Source: a virus (taxonomy: Duplodnaviria > Caudoviricetes). Taken from it: a DNA stretch of 57,007 nt. Below the pieces are notes generated by a model. The model had not been told where the DNA came from and did no database searches. It saw nothing but the letters and a program-made list of their open reading frames with translations. Below, in pieces: positions 9,641 to 53,195 of the stretch. The DNA is taken from the IMG/VR virus record IMGVR_UViG_3300046780_000292, positions 1-57,007 of that record; one strand, 5' to 3'. Each line of letters opens with the position of its first letter. Within the stretch, counting starts at the first letter, position 1. The translations under genes were made by a program, and so were the position numbers.

Positions 9641-9713
9641 TGGCGAGAGCAGGACTCGAACCTGCGGCCTCCGCCTTTTCGGGGCGGCGCTCTTCCGTCT
9701 GAGCTATCTCGCC
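9641..9713 (-). tRNA. tRNA-Phe(GAA)-like RNA with non-canonical C33
   Basis: GGCGAGA/TCTCGCC acceptor stem, GCTC/GAGC D arm, CCGCC-CCGAAAA-GGCGG anticodon arm, GCAGG-TTCGAGT-CCTGC T arm; no encoded CCA. Confidence 0.75.
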
Positions 9714-44785: not shown

Positions 44786-46648
44786 TTACGGGTTGGTCGG
44801 GAACAGGCCCTGGGTGAGGACCGTCGACTGCGCGTTGAGCGCGTAGGCACCCGCGCCGTCCGGGATCAGGCCGCCACCGATGTTGCCGATGGTGTAGACG
44901 CGGCTGTCGAAGCAGGTCTTGGCCGCCAGGATGCCCTGCTCGGTGAACAGCTGGGTGGTCTTGTTCTGCGCCAGCAGGGTGCTGTCGTAGACGGTGTCGA
45001 GGGTGATGATGTCGGCGTTGCCACGCACCCAGGTACCGGCCGCGTACAGCAGGAACTGCATGGTGTGCGGGAAGTCCTGCACGAAGTCGGTGGACGTCGA
45101 GGACTGGCCGAACTGCTGCCAGGCCGACGGCGCGCCGGTCGGGTAGGCCGCCCAGTAGTAGGCGTCCTGCCAGTCGTAGATCCACTGGACGCGGGCACCG
45201 CGCACGGCGAGCCAGGAGTTGATGCGCTCCATGGTCAGGTTGAACTGGTCGGTGGTCGCGTCGCTGTCGTAGAAGTTCTTACGCGCGATGTCGGACCGGA
45301 TCCAGGCCAGCGCCCAGTATGGGAACACGACTTCCAGGGTGGCGTTGAGCGACATCCGCTGGCGGTACTTGTAGTCCATGATCGCCATGTCCATGGCGGT
45401 CAGCAGGGTCGTGACCACGGAGTGGTCGGTGGCCCAGGTGGTGCCAGCGCCGGGGGTGTGGCTGGTGGTGCCGCTCGGCAGGGCGAGGGCGGTCGAGCCG
45501 GTCACCAGGGCGTTGATCATGAACTGGTTGATCTTGTGGGTGTGCGCGACCATCGCACCCCGCACGAACCGGGCGATCAGCTCCGGGTAACCCCGCAACT
45601 GAAGCAGGTCCGTCTGAATCGCCAGACCGTCCGCCTCCAGGCGGGTGTCCGTGAACGACGGGCACGGCACCGGCATCGTCGGCTTCGTGACACCCGAGAT
45701 GATCTGCGCCTCGGTGTAGTGGAAGTACCCCGAGCCGGTGTAGATCGAAGAGAAGTCCGGGCCGGTCGTGTACTTGATGCCACCCCGCGAAACGTTGATC
45801 TCCGGAATGTCCAGCAGGCCGTCCGACGACTCCAGCTCACACAGGTCATAGATGACCTCCGACGGGGCACACCAGCCCGTACCGGCCGCCGTCAGCGAGT
45901 TCGGCGCACCGGCCGCCTGAGCCTGCTTGCGCTTGATGTCCACCGACGCCAGCAGCGAGCCGCCCGGCAGGCGGGACTCCTTCGACGCGAACTCGATGAC
46001 CCGCGTCGCGTCCTCCTGGAGGCCACCCGACGCGGTCAGCTCCTTCGGGTACTCCAGCTTGAACTGCGCGATCGGGTCACGCCGCGAACCACCGGCACCA
46101 CCGAACGCCGAGTACTGGAGGAACCGCTTCTCGACCGCCGCGCCGACCTTGTCCCAGTTCAGCTCCTCGCCGACCTGGAAGTCGGAGTTGTTGGCCCCGG
46201 CGAGGATGACGGCGGGTGCCTGACGCGGCACAGCGTCGGTCGGAACGGCGGCAGGGGCAGTCTGGGAGGCCACCTCGGCGACACCCGGCGTCGCAGGCTT
46301 GGCAGCTGCGGCAGTGGTGGTCGCGGGGGCAGGCGTCTCCACGGTGCCCTCGGGGGCGTCCGGCTCGTCGGTGTCGTCATCGTCGCCGAGGCTGTCGGAG
46401 AGGGCGGCGAAGGCACCAGCCGCGCCACTGCGGCGGCTGCGCTCCTCGTCGACACCCTTGGTGATGGTGGTCAGCTCGCGCATCGTCGCGATGTCGTCGG
46501 CGGTGACGTCGGAGACGTCCATGTCCGCGTATCCGGCGGCTGCGTCGCGGACCTGCGAGCGGATCGAAGTCAGGTCTTCCGTGGAGAGCGTGGAGAAGGC
46601 GTAGGAGCCGTCCTCGTTCTTCGGAACCTGGAAGGGCAGGTTAGGCAC
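44786..46648 (-). CDS. Major capsid (hexamer) protein with a scaffold-like N-terminus
   Basis: SLTAAG.GWCAPSE..YDLC, DG..D.PE...RGG, YDS..L..N....LFTE motifs. Confidence 0.9.
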   Translation of the reverse strand: MPNLPFQVPKNEDGSYAFSTLSTEDLTSIRSQVRDAAAGYADMDVSDVTADDIATMRELTTITKGVDEERSRRSGAAGAFAALSDSLGDDDDTDEPDAPEGTVETPAPATTTAAAAKPATPGVAEVASQTAPAAVPTDAVPRQAPAVILAGANNSDFQVGEELNWDKVGAAVEKRFLQYSAFGGAGGSRRDPIAQFKLEYPKELTASGGLQEDATRVIEFASKESRLPGGSLLASVDIKRKQAQAAGAPNSLTAAGTGWCAPSEVIYDLCELESSDGLLDIPEINVSRGGIKYTTGPDFSSIYTGSGYFHYTEAQIISGVTKPTMPVPCPSFTDTRLEADGLAIQTDLLQLRGYPELIARFVRGAMVAHTHKINQFMINALVTGSTALALPSGTTSHTPGAGTTWATDHSVVTTLLTAMDMAIMDYKYRQRMSLNATLEVVFPYWALAWIRSDIARKNFYDSDATTDQFNLTMERINSWLAVRGARVQWIYDWQDAYYWAAYPTGAPSAWQQFGQSSTSTDFVQDFPHTMQFLLYAAGTWVRGNADIITLDTVYDSTLLAQNKTTQLFTEQGILAAKTCFDSRVYTIGNIGGGLIPDGAGAYALNAQSTVLTQGLFPTNP

Positions 46649-46757
46649 TGCGGTCTCTCTTCAACTTCGAGCGCTCGGCCGGACCGTGGCAGCACCGATA
46701 CACCTGGCCGCGATCATAGCGGGTACCCTGCGCTTTACGGAGGAGGAGGCCGTAAAC

Positions 46758-48455
46758 ATGTCGGAAACTCATGATCATTTCACGCCTGATGCGTTGGACG
46801 AGAGCATCAGGCTGGCCGAGGTAATCGGTGCAAAACTTCACCTCGACCGGGCCGTCAACCCGCGCGCCGGAGAGAAGGTGTGCATCGGCACCCCACACCT
46901 CAACGAGGCGGGCTGGAACTACGTCGAGTCACTCTGGCGGATGGCCGCCTACGACAAGGCCCACGGGAACCACCTGCTGCACAACTCCGGGCTGATGAAC
47001 AACGGCTCGTTCTGCCCCGTCTGGGGCCGCTCCATGGAGCTGTCGCACGCCCGCAACACCGCGACCGCCGCGTTCCTGTCCAGCGAATCGGACTGGCTGC
47101 TCTGGATCGACTCCGACATCGGCTTCGAGCAGGACGCCCTGGAGAAGCTGCTGGACCGCGCCCATCCCGACACCGCGCCGATCGTCGGCGGGCTGTGCTT
47201 CATCGAAGGCGACTACACGCACGACATGCGCGGCGGGCTGCGCTCCAGCCTCGCCCCCACCCTGTACGACTGGGCCTGGGTCGAGCCGAAGAACGGCATG
47301 CCCGGCGCGTACAAGATGGTCACCCGCTCGTCATGGCCGGAGGACATCGCAACCCGGGTCGGGGCGACCGGCTGCGGCCTGCTGCTGACCCACCGGTCCG
47401 TCTACGAGAAGATCTCCTACTGGCTGCGGGAGCAGGGCGCACCCCCGCACATCTGGTTCGACCGGATTCCCGGCCCCGACGGTGAGCTGTGCGGCGAGGA
47501 CGTGTCGTTCTGCCTGCGCGCCCACCAGGTGGATCTGCCGGTCCTCGTGCACACGGGCGTGACCACCACCCACCAGAAGACGATCTGGTACGGGGTGCCG
47601 GAGTACAAGGCGAAGCCGTTCACGCCGCCCGCGTCGAACCTGCTGCTGCTGCCCCCGGACCAGTGGCCGAAGCTGATGATCAACCAGAACGCCGTCGAGC
47701 AGGCCGCCCGCAACTCCCCCATGGGCGAGAAGCAGGTTCCGGAGACCACCGAAGAGGTGGCCATCATCGTGCCAGTCGCGCAGCGGAACAACAGCGCCAC
47801 GTTCCTGGAGAGCCTCGAAGCGTCCCTCACGGAGCAGCAGCGCCGGACCGTGGCCGTATACGTGATGACCGACGAGGACGACGACCACACCGAGCAGTCC
47901 TGGTACCTCGCGTCGCTCGATCACCACCTGACAACGGCCATCGACCACCACCGTTATCCGCGCCCGATGGGTTCCTTCGCCGAGAAGGTGAACCGGGGCT
48001 ACGAAACCTCCTGGCAGCCGTGGATCTTCCTGGTCGGCGACGATGTCCGCTTCCACAAGGGCTGGCTGGACCACGCGATGGAGACGGCCAGGTCCACGGG
48101 CAAGGCCGTGATCGGCACCAACGACCTGGGCAACCCGGCGGTCATGGCCGGGACGCACGCGACCCACATGTTCATCCGCCGTGACTACGTCGACATCGAG
48201 GGCGCGTCGTGGGACGGTCCGGGCGTCGTCTGCCACGAGGGATACCGGCACTGGTTCGTTGACGACGAGATCGTCAACGTGGCGAAGATCCGCGACCAGT
48301 GGGCCCCGAGTCTGTCGTCTCACGTCGAGCATCTGCACCCGTACTGGGGCAAGGCCGAGCGGGACAAGGTGTACGCCATCGGCGCGGCGGCGGCGGACGG
48401 TGACGCGGGCCTTTGGGCGGAGCGGGTGCGGCAGTACGCAGGAGGAGAGTCATGA
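46758..48455 (+). CDS. Tandem-domain GT-A glycosyltransferase
   Basis: ARN..WIDSD, G.G.LL.HR, GED..FC; second domain IIVP, K.N.G, GDD, H.F.DDE, H.HP. Confidence 0.85.
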   Translation: MSETHDHFTPDALDESIRLAEVIGAKLHLDRAVNPRAGEKVCIGTPHLNEAGWNYVESLWRMAAYDKAHGNHLLHNSGLMNNGSFCPVWGRSMELSHARNTATAAFLSSESDWLLWIDSDIGFEQDALEKLLDRAHPDTAPIVGGLCFIEGDYTHDMRGGLRSSLAPTLYDWAWVEPKNGMPGAYKMVTRSSWPEDIATRVGATGCGLLLTHRSVYEKISYWLREQGAPPHIWFDRIPGPDGELCGEDVSFCLRAHQVDLPVLVHTGVTTTHQKTIWYGVPEYKAKPFTPPASNLLLLPPDQWPKLMINQNAVEQAARNSPMGEKQVPETTEEVAIIVPVAQRNNSATFLESLEASLTEQQRRTVAVYVMTDEDDDHTEQSWYLASLDHHLTTAIDHHRYPRPMGSFAEKVNRGYETSWQPWIFLVGDDVRFHKGWLDHAMETARSTGKAVIGTNDLGNPAVMAGTHATHMFIRRDYVDIEGASWDGPGVVCHEGYRHWFVDDEIVNVAKIRDQWAPSLSSHVEHLHPYWGKAERDKVYAIGAAAADGDAGLWAERVRQYAGGES

Positions 48456-49102
48456 TCGAAAACGAGAGGCAGTTGCCAGTCAAGCTGCACCCCTTCCCGC
48501 ATCTGGTGGCGGACGGGCTGTTCCACGACAGCATCCTGGAGAACGTCCTGAAGGAGTTCCCCGCGCCCGACGCGGCAGGCTGGCGTTCGTTCTCCAACAG
48601 TACGGAGCGGAAGCTGGAAGGCAGCAGCCCGCGCATGTGGGGGGTGGCCACAACGCTGGTCCTGCGTCAGATGGAGCTTCAGGCCCCCGGTCTGGCGAAG
48701 GCGTTCGGTACGCCGCCGCTGACGATGGAGACGACCGGCGGGGGCTACCACCTGATCGAGCCGGGCGGCTACCTGGCGATGCACGCCGACTTCTCCCGCT
48801 CCCCCGCGACCGGCCTGTACCGGTGGCTGAACATGCTGGTCTACCTCAACCATGACTGGGATGAGGAGGGCGGCTGCCTTCAGCTCTGGGACGACGACGG
48901 CCCGGCCGTCACGGTCGCACCGCAGTTCAACCGGACCGTCGTGTTCCGCACCTCCGGATCGTCGTGGCATGGGCATCCCGTGCCGAACACCCGGCCGCGC
49001 CGTTCGGTGGCCGCCTACTTCTACGCCTCGGAGCCGCCGCCCGGCTATGCGGGTGACCACTCGACCCGCTGGCACCCGAAGGCGGGGCAGCCCGGTGCAT
49101 GA
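48452..49102 (+). CDS. 2OG-Fe(II) oxygenase (prolyl-hydroxylase-like)
   Basis: PFPH...D, GGG.H, H-A-D, YLN..W...GG.L.LW, FNR.V.F, SWHG, R.S...Y. Confidence 0.9.
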   Translation: MIENERQLPVKLHPFPHLVADGLFHDSILENVLKEFPAPDAAGWRSFSNSTERKLEGSSPRMWGVATTLVLRQMELQAPGLAKAFGTPPLTMETTGGGYHLIEPGGYLAMHADFSRSPATGLYRWLNMLVYLNHDWDEEGGCLQLWDDDGPAVTVAPQFNRTVVFRTSGSSWHGHPVPNTRPRRSVAAYFYASEPPPGYAGDHSTRWHPKAGQPGA

Positions 49103-49703
49103 GGCAGTCCTGGCCTGGGTGGGCCAGTTCCGGACCGATGAGGATCTGGCTGTGCTGGACATCGGCGGCCGGGACCTCAACGGCAGTACGCGCGTCCTGT
49201 TCCCGAACGCGAACCCGTATCACGTCCTGGATCTGCGGCCCGGCAAGGGCGTCGACTTCGTCGCCGACGCGGCCGACTGGCGGCCTGACCGCCGGTACGA
49301 CCTCGTCGTGTGCACCGAGACGTTCGAGCATGCCGAGAAGTGGCGGGAGATCATCCTGACCGCCTGGGATGCGCTACGGCCCGGCGGCTGGTTCATCTTC
49401 ACCTGCGCCGGACCTGGGCGGCCGGAACACTCCGGTGTTGAGGCGGTGTGGGGTCTGATCGACGGCGAGTGGTATGCCAACGTGTCGCCGGAGGAGATCC
49501 GCGAGGAGTTGCAGGATCAGGGCTGGGTGGAGATCGAGGCCCGTACGCACGGCCTGGACACCCAGGGCAAGGCGGTCAAGCCGTACGAGACTCCGCCGCT
49601 GATCCGAGCGGAAGAGGTTGTGATCGGCGACCAGAGCTTCCGCGACGTGATCCTGACGGTCGGACCGATGACGCGGACTTCTGGCAGGCCGGGCACTTCC
49701 TGA
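49095..49703 (+). CDS. Class I SAM-dependent methyltransferase
   Basis: VLDIGG.D.NG, G.GVD.V.D, D.V...E.FEH, L.PGG motifs. Confidence 0.85.
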   Translation: MHEAVLAWVGQFRTDEDLAVLDIGGRDLNGSTRVLFPNANPYHVLDLRPGKGVDFVADAADWRPDRRYDLVVCTETFEHAEKWREIILTAWDALRPGGWFIFTCAGPGRPEHSGVEAVWGLIDGEWYANVSPEEIREELQDQGWVEIEARTHGLDTQGKAVKPYETPPLIRAEEVVIGDQSFRDVILTVGPMTRTSGRPGTS

Positions 49704-50043: not shown

Positions 50044-50084
50044 AGGATACATCGCTTGCGCATCCCGTCAACCGCGTGTATGCT
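50044..50084. promoter_or_regulatory. Overlapping divergent promoters with a TTGCG-N6-GTCAA element
   Basis: Plus: TTGCGC-17-TATGCT. Minus: TTGACG-16-TATCCT. Confidence 0.55.
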
Positions 50085-50103
50085 GATAGCAGACGACATC
50101 GGG

Positions 50104-50326
50104 TTGCTGGTGAACAACGTCGTTAAAGGTGGAAACCAGCACAGCAGTAAGGCGTTGCGGACCAATGTCCGTTCGGGTGATCCCAGAGATCGGAAGACCC
50201 TGCATCCACTGGCCATGCCAGCAAGGAGGGTTAGCGCCTACAACTGAATCGGGGACCGGCCAGGACCCCCGGCGGAGAAGGCGATTGAGTCGCGCCGCTG
50301 GGCCGTAGAGCCTGGTCAGGTCCCCA
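50104..50326 (+). ncRNA. Two candidate structured RNAs (50104-50224 and 50251-50326)
   Basis: Closing stems TTGCTGG/CCAGCAA and GGGGACC/GGTCCCC with internal hairpins; no plausible ORF. Confidence 0.45.
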
Positions 50327-50333
50327 TCTTCTT

Positions 50334-50401
50334 GGGCCTGTAGCTCATTGGGGAGCGCCGCTGCGGCGGGAGGGGGGCGGGTTCGATTCCCGTCAGGTCC
50401 A
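50334..50401 (+). ncRNA. tRNA-like RNA with a collapsed anticodon arm and G3-U70
   Basis: GGGCCTG/CAGGTCC+A acceptor stem; GCTC-ATTGGG-GAGC D arm; GCCGCTGCGGC mini-hairpin; GCGGG-TTCGATT-CCCGT T arm. Confidence 0.7.
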
Positions 50402-50433
50402 CGGGGAAATTCCCCCTCCGATCGGAGGAATTC

Positions 50434-50946
50434 ATGCGCAACAAGATCTGGGCGGCCTTGGCGGCGTTCGCGGCGATGTCGTTGGCCGTGTTCGGCTTCG
50501 CGGCACCGGCGATGGCCACGGGCGGGCCCTACATGAACTGCGCCTACCTGAACGTGTGCCTGTTCCAGAACATCAACTACAACGCCAACCAGTGGCACAG
50601 CTCGATCGCCAACATCGACCTGCACACCAACGAGTGTCTGACCATCCCGCCCGCTCAGTACGCCGACGGCAACAACGTCAGCGACGGGTCCAGCTCCCTG
50701 GTGGTCAACAGCGACACGGCCAACGGAAACCCGTGGCAGTACTACACGATCTACTTCTTCAACTGGATCAACTGCAACTCGGACGGCGGGGTCCGGGCGT
50801 TCCCGATGACGGCCATCACCCACATTCCGAGCCTCTACAGCTGGAGCTACTACAACGTGCCATCGATCAGCATGGCGCGGACGATCACCAGCATCGAAGT
50901 CATCCCGAACAGCTTCGCCCCGAAGAACGGCGTCCCGACCAGCTGA
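50434..50946 (+). CDS. Secreted protein, peptidase-inhibitor I36 / beta-gamma-crystallin-like
   Basis: Signal peptide ending AMA; C....VCLF...NY and D..SS..VN motifs; Asn-rich. Confidence 0.65.
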   Translation: MRNKIWAALAAFAAMSLAVFGFAAPAMATGGPYMNCAYLNVCLFQNINYNANQWHSSIANIDLHTNECLTIPPAQYADGNNVSDGSSSLVVNSDTANGNPWQYYTIYFFNWINCNSDGGVRAFPMTAITHIPSLYSWSYYNVPSISMARTITSIEVIPNSFAPKNGVPTS

Positions 50947-50952
50947 CCCCAG

Positions 50953-51004
50953 ACACACGAAAGGCCCGGCCCCAAGGGAAGAGGGGCCGGGCCTTTCGTG
51001 TGTC
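50953..51004. terminator. Bidirectional terminator
   Basis: ACACACGAAAGGCCCGGCCCC...GGGGCCGGGCCTTTCGTGTGT between convergent genes. Confidence 0.75.
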
Positions 51005-51005
51005 T

Positions 51006-51176: not shown

Positions 51177-53195
51177 CTACTCCACCAGGGCGACGAGAAG
51201 ATCGCCCACGGCCTCAGCATAATCGGCCGCGCTGGAGTCGGCCGTGGCCGACGCGAGCAGCTCCCGCCACTCGGCGGCCCGCGCCTGCTGCTCGGCGATG
51301 GCCGCATTCTCGGCCGCCATACCCCGCGCGACAGCCCGGCCCAGCGCCTCCATGTCGACGCCGCCCGGAAGGCCCTGCTCTTCGTCGTCGATGACGCGGG
51401 GGAGGACACCTGCGGCCGTCAGGGACAGCACCTCGTCGTCCTCGGTAAAACCGCTGATCATCGAGGCGACCAGGACCCGGGGGATGGGGAAGCCTGCCGT
51501 GTTGACGTGCAGGGCGGCCACCATCTCCAGGTTGCCGCCGATCCGCCGCCAGTCGCCCGACAGGGGTGCGGCGCGCATGGCCCGGACAGCGGTGTCGTCG
51601 GCGTCAGGGGCGAGGGTGCCAGACACCCAAATGCCATGCTCGTCCTCACCGGCGCGCACGAGGGCACCGACGTTGGACGTCTGGTCGTAGTGCTCGGCCG
51701 CCGCCCGGTAGCCGAGGTTCGGCTGAGCGTGCCCGCCGCCGTATGTCAGGCGGCCCACAGCGACCCGGGAGCCGTCATCGGTGGCCACCTCGCCGGTGTG
51801 GAAGTAGGCGTACGACGTGAGGGACTTGGGTGGCTTGACGCAGGAGTCGCCGATGCCGACGTGGCAGGTGTCCCAGACGGCGACGTGCCCGTAGACGCGG
51901 CCGTCGTCGCCGATGTGCAGCGGGGTCGGGCCGGGCAGCTTCGGGTCGTCGAACCAGCCCTTGGGAGGGGCGACCGGGGCGGCCCCGGCCATGAGCGCGG
52001 CCATCTTCTCTCCGGCCTTCCAGTTGTCGGGCAGGCTGCCCTCGCAGCCCTTGCGCTTCGCGATGGCCGTCAGGCGGCTCTTGAACTCGGCGTACGGGAT
52101 CTTCGGGTTGGCCCGGCCGTACGAGGAGACCGCGTCGGGGATGTCGGCGCAGGAGGCGATCGGGAAGCGGCGGCCCTTCGGGTCGACGAAGTCCGCGTCG
52201 TCGAGCTTCTTACGCACGGCGGTCTTGGTGACGTCGGGCCCGCCGGGGGCGTAGTCGCTGTCTCCCCGATAGGTGCCGCCGCCCTGGGCCTGCTCGCCGT
52301 CGGTGCCCTGCATCTCCGGCTGGTTGGCCTTGTTCGGGCGAGGCAGCTTCTTCGCGAACTCCTCGAACTCGGTATCCGAGAGCCAGATGCCGGATCCGAA
52401 CTCCTCGTCGTCCTGGTTGCCCTTGACCTTCTCGGGATCAAGCTTGCGCTTCTTGGCGGCCATCTCGCCGTCGTTTTCGATCTTGTCGTCGCTCGGGTCC
52501 ACACCGCCCCACTCGACTCCGGCCCAGTCGAACAACCCCGCCATGTCAGTGAAGTCGGCGGCCGTTGCCATCATCGCGGAGGAGGTGGTGCCGTCCACGT
52601 TCGGATCCGACGAGTCGATCGGGGTGAGCTTCGCGTGCCCGGACAGTTCGGCGAACGCGGGAATGTGCACCAGCGTGGCCGACGCCATCCGGCCCGAACG
52701 GATCATCCGCAGGCGTGGCCCGTCGTAGGCCTCTTCGGCCATCACCGGATCGGAGCCGCAACCGCAGTCCCCGCCGCTGGCCTTCGAGTGGGCCATCTTC
52801 GCGGCCTTCAGCTTCCCAGCCTGCATCTTCTTCCAGGCGGTGTACGCCTTGGGCTCGGGGACGTGCTCAACTTCCTGCTGGTCGAGGTCGACGCTGGGTC
52901 CGATGACCTTGTTCTCGGTGAACTTCTTCGCGGCGATGGCCGCGTTGCGCACCTCGTCGGGCCACGACTCGTCGTCGTAGAACTCTCCCTTGGCCGGGAG
53001 GAGGCCGTCCTTCTCCCGGCCAATCTTGGAGATGTGCCCGACGATCACCGCGTTCTGGTGGCCGCCGGAGTCCTGGGCGACGTACCGGAACGGGAGCGGC
53101 AGGTCCCGGTGCCCGAGAGCGCCCGGGTCGAACTGGCGGCCGTCGCCGGTGGGCTTCCCGATGACGGCGAGCGGCATCTGCCAGGCGGTTCCCAT
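51177..53195 (-). CDS. Capsid maturation protease, multidomain (with DUF6582-like insert)
   Basis: W...LA..G.PTGDGR, ATLV.IPAF, GRVYGH.A.W..CH, SGDWR, VN..GFP motifs. Confidence 0.85.
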   Translation of the reverse strand: MGTAWQMPLAVIGKPTGDGRQFDPGALGHRDLPLPFRYVAQDSGGHQNAVIVGHISKIGREKDGLLPAKGEFYDDESWPDEVRNAAIAAKKFTENKVIGPSVDLDQQEVEHVPEPKAYTAWKKMQAGKLKAAKMAHSKASGGDCGCGSDPVMAEEAYDGPRLRMIRSGRMASATLVHIPAFAELSGHAKLTPIDSSDPNVDGTTSSAMMATAADFTDMAGLFDWAGVEWGGVDPSDDKIENDGEMAAKKRKLDPEKVKGNQDDEEFGSGIWLSDTEFEEFAKKLPRPNKANQPEMQGTDGEQAQGGGTYRGDSDYAPGGPDVTKTAVRKKLDDADFVDPKGRRFPIASCADIPDAVSSYGRANPKIPYAEFKSRLTAIAKRKGCEGSLPDNWKAGEKMAALMAGAAPVAPPKGWFDDPKLPGPTPLHIGDDGRVYGHVAVWDTCHVGIGDSCVKPPKSLTSYAYFHTGEVATDDGSRVAVGRLTYGGGHAQPNLGYRAAAEHYDQTSNVGALVRAGEDEHGIWVSGTLAPDADDTAVRAMRAAPLSGDWRRIGGNLEMVAALHVNTAGFPIPRVLVASMISGFTEDDEVLSLTAAGVLPRVIDDEEQGLPGGVDMEALGRAVARGMAAENAAIAEQQARAAEWRELLASATADSSAADYAEAVGDLLVALVE

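Follow-up and report, generated by a model that had tools for sequence, protein, structure and literature searches.

A tRNA-Ala-like element without a usable anticodon, between a structured leader and a secreted-protein gene in an actinophage-like genome, may act as an RNA-processing signal

The IMG/VR record IMGVR_UViG_3300046780_000292, whose 57,007 bases (the window, that is, the whole stretch of DNA analysed) correspond to a whole virus and are rated complete, carries a short plus-strand island among minus-strand head genes, in which a transfer RNA (tRNA)-like element with no usable anticodon lies between a structured leader and an open reading frame (ORF) for a predicted secreted protein. 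PHROG scans of the 63 ORFs identify the genome as that of a tailed, actinophage-like virus. The island, at 50056-51005, is a moron running from promoter to terminator, and the place it occupies between head genes is variable; its neighbours are a minus-strand ORF of 672 amino acids (aa; 51177-53195), which matches head-maturation protease and scaffold families, and a small divergent minus-strand gene for a membrane protein. A reading made earlier from the sequence alone had regarded it as a self-contained unit, and its organisation as promoter, leader, ORF and terminator supports that view. Its parts, in order and with lengths in nucleotides (nt) and base pairs (bp), are as follows.

50056-50084, plus strand: promoter, with TTGCGC at 50056-50061, a spacer of 17 nt and TATGCT at 50079-50084
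50095-50140, plus strand: module A, a conserved 5' tail GACAT and then a 6-bp stem (50106-50111/50135-50140) closing a 23-nt loop
50141-50239, plus strand: lineage-specific insert between module A and the linker
50240-50250, plus strand: linker ACAACTGAATC, conserved in alignments and immediately 5' of module B
50251-50325, plus strand: module B, a four-tier hairpin (covariance model 97.7 bits in the sense direction; fold z -3.76)
50334-50401, plus strand: non-decoding tRNA-like element, derived from tRNA-Ala (Rfam tRNA 40.2 bits; called by ARAGORN)
50403-50428, plus strand: two small hairpins, 50404-50414 and CCTCC-GATC-GGAGG at 50415-50428 (fold -12.6 kcal/mol, z -0.63)
50434-50946, plus strand: ORF of 170 aa; the N-terminus reads as a Sec-type signal peptide (MRNK..., AMA-T), and the mature part has four Cys
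50951-51005, either strand: bidirectional terminator hairpin with a perfect 23-bp stem (-52 kcal/mol, z -9.3)

Downstream of the promoter, the tRNA-like element is separated from module B by 8 nt and from the ATG by 32 nt. It had been described as a tRNA mimic with G1-C72, G2-C71, G3-U70 and A73 that does not decode, and both the pairs and the absence of decoding features are as described. In a sensitive scan of 1.1 kilobases (kb), the Rfam tRNA model (RF00005) gave 40.2 bits against a gathering score of 29 (E 8.6e-7), matching model positions 1-71; a scan of the whole window at the gathering threshold with default filters missed this 40-bit hit. ARAGORN reports it as 'tRNA-???' with a 2-nt anticodon. 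The acceptor stem (GGGCCTG/CAGGTCC) has 7 bp including G3-U70 and no encoded CCA, the D loop has 6 nt, the T arm is canonical (GGTTCGATTCC), and U8, A14, G18G19, TTCGA in the T loop and G53-C61 can all be read as elbow and T-loop features. The anticodon arm is CCGC-TGCG-GCGG, four base pairs capped by UGCG, which leaves 6 nt where the model has 11 central positions instead of the 5-bp stem, 7-nt loop and 3-nt anticodon of a decoding tRNA. A remnant of a phage attachment site (attP) was considered and rejected: both tRNA halves are present, and PHROG scans found no integrase among the 63 ORFs.

Several features point to an alanine tRNA as the parent. The bacterial tRNA-Ala identity set, as set out in an excerpt of PMC9976931, comprises A73, G2-C71, G3-U70, G4-C69 and G20. 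The element has G2(50335)-C71(50399), G3(50336)-T70(50398) and A73(50401), with G1-C72 as well; its 4:69 pair is C-G, not G4-C69, as it is in ordinary phage tRNA-Ala genes that have this acceptor stem, and G20 is unassignable in the shortened D loop. The acceptor stem, discriminator A and D stem are those of ordinary phage tRNA-Ala genes (with TGC, CGC or GGC anticodons), and tRNAs of the same comparison set that have the G3-C70 version of this stem are not alanine tRNAs. Compared with the ordinary genes, the element's anticodon arm is shorter by about 5 nt and its D loop by one. Judged by these identities, it is a genuine tRNA-Ala derivative.

Such an element might be charged, and one explanation is that alanyl-tRNA synthetase (AlaRS) aminoacylates the excised, CCA-tailed RNA and that the product has a role of its own, be it as a non-decoding aminoacyl donor, as a sink for EF-Tu or AlaRS, or as an entrant into stalled ribosomes in the manner of transfer-messenger RNA (tmRNA); on balance we think this unlikely. 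AlaRS ignores the anticodon and charges minihelices, a property that counts in its favour, as do the three determinants above and the identity of the acceptor stem to that of ordinary phage tRNA-Ala genes (TGC or CGC). The C-G at 4:69 counts against it, tempered by its presence in those same genes, and G3-U70 may be simple inheritance from the parent gene.

Directly upstream of the element stands module B, where a GGGGACC/GGTCCCC element had been noticed from the sequence. The hairpin at 50251-50325 proves stable beyond shuffles (minimum free energy [MFE] -48.1 kcal/mol, z -3.76; 0 of 200 shuffles as stable) and covaries. Its tiers are P1 (50251-57/50319-25, with a bulged A at 50318), P2 (50258-64/50311-17), P3 (50268-75/50295-302) and P4 (50281-85/50289-93), and the apical block GAGAAGGCGAT..AGTCGCGC shows no variation. 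Thirteen copies served to build a covariance model, which, searched against 1.05 Mb of phage loci (designated here by L numbers), found 21 sense hits, 19 of them distinct, including copies in phages with quite different outer stems (L133, L137, L138, L144, L145 and L151); the score is about 97 bits in the sense direction (97.7) against about 20 bits antisense (20.7). In the model-fitted alignment of the 19 distinct copies, which leans towards the model, 94.1% of cells are paired and double changes occur in 17 of 26 pairs (56 cells), a result reached by 0 of 500 shuffles and compared with at most 50.8% in slid controls. An independent MAFFT alignment of 13 sequences gives 91.2% paired cells and double changes in 7 pairs and 14 cells, with no match on cells or on score among 500 shuffles. 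RNAalifold, applied to a plain MAFFT alignment of all 19 copies, recovered the apical stem only, because the stems are misaligned there. Four complete phage genomes of 40-43 kb contain one copy of module B each, and a fifth contains none.

Module A is known from 15 distinct copies in which 34 of 65 columns are invariant and the 23-nt loop is nearly so. Its stem is paired in 93.3% of cells with double changes in three of six pairs (C-G to U-A and U-A to C-G), and support from covariation is modest because these exchanges stem from few events. Between module A and the linker the window has an insert for which none of the fetched viral loci has a relative; 50141-50239 matches best over 14 nt, a chance hit; other lineages carry different inserts between the modules, and in four loci (L012, L020, L025 and L026) module A directly abuts the linker and module B. 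A single multibranch element had been proposed at 50104-50224, but this region is module A plus the lineage-specific insert, and the fold of 50098-50245 does not exceed shuffles (z -0.95). The wider suggestion that the leader contains structured RNA is borne out by the conservation of both modules and the covariation of module B.

Conservation, strand bias and a single copy per genome together mark modules A and B as a real RNA family, specific to phages and absent from Rfam. Rfam 15 has no match to either module up to E 10 over 50095-50333, nor any in the relatives' loci; an Rfam search proposed with the sequence-only reading thus returned the tRNA family for the tRNA-like element and nothing for the modules. 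We found no account of the modules in the literature, a comparison that did not extend to a list of 224 motifs (PMC5737381) and a list of YrlA loci (PMC4201824).

Several candidate copies or functions of module B were rejected. The invariant 20-mer occurs in 52 GTDB genome contigs, where it has no complementary flanks (longest contiguous flank pairing 6 or less, mostly 1-3), and these are chance hits in coding regions, as is the IMG/VR sequence L135. A peptide-coding reading is broken in every frame by 1-nt indels in P3 between relatives. A U-rich run follows module B in 6 of about 12 group members, which gave grounds for a riboswitch with module B as its terminator; this is unlikely, the apical part being invariant and module B also heading non-coding cargo. 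Two observations touch the sequences around the modules. The linker motif ACAACTGAAT is also found 5 nt before a tRNA-like element without an anticodon arm in an unrelated 40-kb virus record (L285:2765-2780), and the two sites may have in common a 5' leader signal for stems of the acceptor type. A further module of about 32 nt, module C (GTTACTTACCCATGTGGG.TCGATGAGACTGG), lies between A and B in L015 and after B in L139, and its occurrence on different sides of B in two phages shows that modules are shuffled.

Comparison across related phages places the unit in its setting. No resembling phage was found in the GenBank phage collection, either in a distant search with 1.2 kb or in a near search with 13 kb. 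In IMG/VR we confirmed 221 relatives of the 672-aa ORF and kept 80 loci for comparison. When 46-54 kb of the window was compared with these by blastn, 50240-50326 was 82-94% identical in eleven loci whose flanking genes are merely about 75% identical, and 50075-50143 was likewise kept in nine; the tRNA-like element and the 170-aa ORF were not found in those loci by this search. The parts recur in many arrangements: module B by itself precedes an ORF in L003, L008 and L013; module A by itself stands directly before a Shine-Dalgarno sequence (SD) and ORF in L014, L023 and L209; modules A and B are followed by nothing but a terminator in L020 (identical to L025) and L139; and L004 has the promoter region and an ORF homologue with both modules absent. 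These different combinations of modules and ORFs show that the locus is a shuffling hot spot at which leader modules and cargo are exchanged freely. An alternative cargo, the first ORF after the leader in L008, L009, L012, L023 (= L208) and L209, is a small basic Gly/Pro-rich protein with a CC(P/S)MV motif and a C-terminal RGK(F/Y)RLA.RYA..S.RL segment.

The limits of the unit are set by a promoter and a terminator, both of which had been read from the sequence beforehand. The TTGCGC and TATGCT boxes agree with consensus at only 3/6 and 4/6 positions by manual count, and the plus-strand site is not listed by a generic sigma-70 scan; we accept it as a promoter because it is conserved, not because it matches consensus, the motif being found 21-163 nt upstream of the core of the first module in 11 of 17 loci of the phage group. 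TTGCG[CT]-N16-18-TA[TG]GCT has one match per strand in 57 kb, the other being on the minus strand at about 9639, where it adjoins tRNA-Phe (9641-9713) on the 3' side. The promoter overlaps a divergent minus-strand promoter-like site, TTGACG-16-TATCCT (50071-50044), that the scan does list. The terminator hairpin, with the stem and stability given above, is common to the unit and the convergent minus-strand head-protease operon and is conserved in relatives.

Between the tRNA-like element and the ORF, the inverted repeat CCTCC-GATC-GGAGG covers the SD, 5 nt before the ATG at 50434, as had been claimed; its fold is not unusually stable (49 of 200 shuffles), and it is only partly conserved. The unit may, as had been proposed, be regulated through its RNA. 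The 170-aa product had been called I36-like. No Pfam family matches it even at E 10, PF03995 included, and it belongs to no PHROG family; what stands of the earlier name is a lead from a protein atlas, in which the nearest clusters (scores 0.95 and 0.93) are actinobacterial with PF03995 in 28-90% of their members, and in which template-modelling (TM) values for the predicted structure are 0.47-0.65, one aligned part reaching the bar for a name. The protein may be distantly I36/beta-gamma-crystallin-like. At the equivalent place L004 and L005 have ORFs with which it shares 36% identity (E 5e-19), and a pattern search of IMG/VR found no relative.

The tRNA-like element has a sister in a related phage, at L088:9855-9924, in which the anticodon arm is CCGC-GUA-GCGG and G3-U70 and A73 are kept. 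Over the 28 nt of T arm and 3' acceptor strand the two copies are identical, and all four stems are intact in both. The L088 copy is 28 kb away from the head genes and is flanked by two lipoprotein ORFs of the same strand, of which the second encodes an Ltp protein (PF07553, E 5e-21); ARAGORN offers for it the alternative of a tRNA-Ala(AGC) with a 3-bp stem, which makes its decoding status ambiguous. Further copies come from metagenomes: L212, an AT-rich contig, has the same acceptor stem with G3-U70 and A73 and no anticodon arm, and L211 has a copy capped by GAAA with a degenerate acceptor stem. The retention of G3-U70 and A73 in L088 and in the arm-less L212 is a further point for charging by AlaRS. 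Two other tRNA-like elements, L092:887-973 and L114:8255-8329, share the window's 5' acceptor strand GGGCCTG and have an enlarged anticodon region (6-bp stem, loop of about 17 nt) and a 2:71 mismatch.

Three distant phages, L137, L145 and L206, have other non-decoding tRNA-like bodies at the equivalent position. In L145 a tRNA-like element with a 75-nt insert in the anticodon region (Rfam tRNA 47.4 bits) starts 5 nt after module B; in L137 a cloverleaf with tetraloop-capped arms starts 4 nt after it; in L206 a cloverleaf whose anticodon arm is a 12-bp hairpin starts 7 nt after a B-like hairpin that the B model leaves unscored; and in L133 a three-way structure of acceptor and T arm is found some 70 nt beyond B. 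None of the four has G3-U70, the 3:70 pair being G-C or C-G in L137, L145 and L206. This weighs against alanylation, since alanine identity is not what is conserved; the recurring feature is a non-decoding tRNA body right after module B. Phages of 43 kb with direct terminal repeats (L213 = G001:23920-27000, about 1310-1900; L145/L214; L206) have a non-coding stretch of about 600 nt that contains both modules and a row of at least two oversized or capped tRNA-like elements.

Truncated tRNA-like elements are also common outside this locus. With one narrow pattern (a D arm, at most 23 nt, and then a T loop) at least 119 stretches were found in phage contigs. We analysed 77 distinct elements among the matches listed, the scope of the next counts as well: 26 have no room for an anticodon arm, 21 of these 26 keep six or more of the seven acceptor pairs, and G-U with A73 occurs in 7 of the 57 elements with at least six acceptor pairs. 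The seven are a point for charging and the diversity of identities across the class a point against it. Of six armless loci tested, five score 38-48 bits as tRNA, with 3 nt replacing the anticodon arm, and several armless elements lie between a stop codon and the next SD. Examples of 57-60 nt with acceptor, D and T arms intact (from L217-L296) are L226:1566-1623, L230:1944-2001 and L285:2781-2838.

This abundance of truncated elements with diverse acceptor identities would suit an anti-defence decoy, an anticodon-less tRNA body that soaks up a host factor attacking or modifying acceptor ends or elbows, such as a toxin nuclease or a nucleotidyltransferase, during infection. Phage tRNAs have been proposed to counter defences that target tRNAs, according to an excerpt of PMC10264068. 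We nonetheless consider this explanation very unlikely here, as no defence or counter-defence gene is linked to the tRNA-like element and its placement in the 5' untranslated region is left unexplained.

We favour, tentatively and at a little less than an even chance, the explanation that the element is a phage counterpart of the t-elements of plant mitochondria or of the mascRNA of MALAT1, cut out by host RNase P and RNase Z so as to separate the leader RNA from the messenger RNA (mRNA). What has been kept is the acceptor/T-arm stack and elbow, which RNase P, RNase Z and the CCA-adding enzyme read, and what has been lost is the part read by the ribosome. Together with placement in a spacer, recurrence next to module B and the precedent of the t-elements, these features favour processing. 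Both known copies, in the window and in L088, lie in a transcribed spacer, and their intact stems with different caps, C(UGCG)G here and GUA in L088, fit selection for the fold. The phage's own tRNA-Phe, tRNA-Arg and tRNA-Met are also without an encoded CCA, so the host must process and CCA-tail such transcripts.

In this scheme a transcript from the unit's own promoter would comprise module A, the private insert, the linker, module B, the tRNA-like element and the ORF. Host RNase P, we infer, would cut at 50333/50334, and RNase Z or an equivalent 3' activity just after A73 (50401). Three products would follow: a leader RNA whose 3' end lies a few nucleotides beyond the hairpin of module B, a tRNA-like RNA of about 68 nt, and an mRNA that starts at the hairpin 50404-50414 and continues with the SD hairpin and the secreted, I36-like ORF. 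The new ends might stabilise the RNAs, and the excised tRNA-like RNA, with its main alanine determinants, could acquire CCA and alanine as a by-product.

Several observations weigh against processing as a function of the element. Contigs from sequencing runs X2 and X3 carry the window sequence unchanged, including the tRNA-like element or its start. In run X6, however, 50325 is joined to 50434 through 32 other letters, with the ORF kept (2 differences in 106 nt), and 68 other letters replace 50085-50239; the element is thus an insertion/deletion difference between close relatives. No tRNA-like element was found in 33 related loci scanned, and in most relatives an SD and ORF, or a terminator, come right after module B. 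Since it is absent from a variant with the same ORF and from these loci, the unit works without it, and the element is dispensable. Within the element, the shortened D loop has by reading lost R15 and A21, and the RNAfold MFE structure is without the T arm and not beyond shuffles (z -1.29). In the 43-kb phages modules A and B have no adjoining recognisable promoter. A crude count of context for the truncated class favours same-strand placement only weakly: an ORF begins no more than 150 nt downstream on the same strand for 23 of 50 elements, against 14 of 50 on the opposite strand (12 against 6 with an SD-like motif). None of the listed sequencing runs that hold the stretch is on record as RNA. 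The absence from the near-identical variant in X6 tells equally against a role for charging.

Much of this would be expected of a decaying tRNA-Ala pseudogene, a neutral passenger without function in this unit, originally a phage tRNA-Ala gene that reached a recombination hot spot and whose anticodon arm is being lost. The indel polymorphism between near-identical phages, the absence from the 33 loci, the free swapping of leaders and cargo at this locus and the shortened D loop are all in keeping with such decay, and so may be L007, where ...TTGGGCCAC... stands at the place of TTGGGCC[...]AC in the window and looks like the remnant of a deletion between the near-repeat ends of the acceptor stem (GGGCC and GGTCC). 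We doubt this explanation all the same. A perfect 4-bp stem with a UNCG-type cap is rarely left by random deletion, and in L088 the cap differs with every stem intact and 28 of 28 nt of T arm and 3' acceptor strand identical. Many independent phage tRNA-like elements have lost exactly the anticodon arm while keeping six or seven acceptor pairs, and the runs X2 and X3 hold the same phage sequence.

Excision of the element as a processing signal would mean that phages borrow the most reliable RNA-processing enzymes of the host to tailor the ends of an accessory-gene mRNA and its leader. Punctuation of mRNAs by tRNA-like structures is already established in organelles and in eukaryotic long non-coding RNAs; in the literature we found no account of it in phage operons. 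In modules A and B, uncultured soil actinophages contribute an RNA family supported by covariation, for which natural variants with and without each module offer a clear experimental handle. By the census, many of the tRNAs and pseudo-tRNAs called in phages seem to conceal a class that does not decode, a point of importance for annotation and for discussion of the reasons why phages have tRNAs at all.

The remainder of the genome is that of a tailed phage, in which PHROG families name a portal, terminase, tape measure, replication initiator, Erf and major head protein (44786-46648, minus strand). A plus-strand block at 46686-49703 breaks the minus-strand head/tail operon and encodes a two-domain glycosyltransferase, a 2-oxoglutarate (2OG)-Fe(II) oxygenase and an S-adenosylmethionine (SAM)-dependent methyltransferase; it may be a virion-modification cassette. 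Among the head genes, the minus-strand ORF 54010-55158 matches ADP-ribosylglycohydrolase families (PHROG E 1e-35 to 1e-49).

Five known systems invite comparison. GOLLD and ROOL are ornate RNAs of unknown function often found near tRNAs and in prophages, as described in an excerpt of PMC5737381; modules A and B similarly travel with tRNA-like elements in phages, although they total about 135 nt against 580-800 nt and have no Rfam similarity to either. A bolder proposal, which seems to us improbable, is that modules A and B with the non-decoding tRNA-like elements that follow them would form one new composite class of phage RNA, a small counterpart of GOLLD and ROOL whose tRNA body serves as a domain in its own right, offering host tRNA enzymes a handle and, where it is of the alanine type, an end that is aminoacylated, and that armless tRNA bodies are widely used by phages as punctuation or decoys. 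YrlA, a phage-borne non-coding RNA, has a tRNA-like module that is a substrate of tRNA enzymes, as reported in an excerpt of PMC4201824. The element in the window is likewise a phage-borne tRNA mimic, whereas YrlA has a Ro-binding stem at the anticodon position and a closed 'acceptor'; no Rfam match to YrlA was obtained here and no Ro/TROVE-like hit among the 63 phage ORFs. The tRNA-like domain of tmRNA shares the G3-U70 alanine identity and the lack of an anticodon, and differs in that the window element is a closed cloverleaf with a D arm, has no tag frame and does not build its acceptor from distant 5' and 3' ends; ARAGORN and Rfam found no tmRNA in the window.

In MALAT1-mascRNA and MEN-beta, RNase P cutting at a tRNA-like structure defines the 3' end of the upstream RNA. 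There too a structured non-coding RNA is directly followed by a tRNA-like element with a defective anticodon region, in a eukaryotic, nuclear setting and with a triple-helix end that is lacking here, where an ORF follows instead. The closest parallel is with the t-elements of plant mitochondria, in which, according to an excerpt of PMC1920247, RNase P and RNase Z cut at either end of the element, which gives rise to mRNA termini and to a small, stable tRNA-like RNA able to acquire C and A residues that are not encoded. The element differs from them in belonging to a DNA phage of Actinomycetota-like composition, in its clear derivation from tRNA-Ala and in following a conserved structured leader. 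Like them, 50334-50401 combines a non-canonical cloverleaf and a well-kept T arm with a position inside an mRNA leader, the setting in which the predicted cleavages would release both leader and message.

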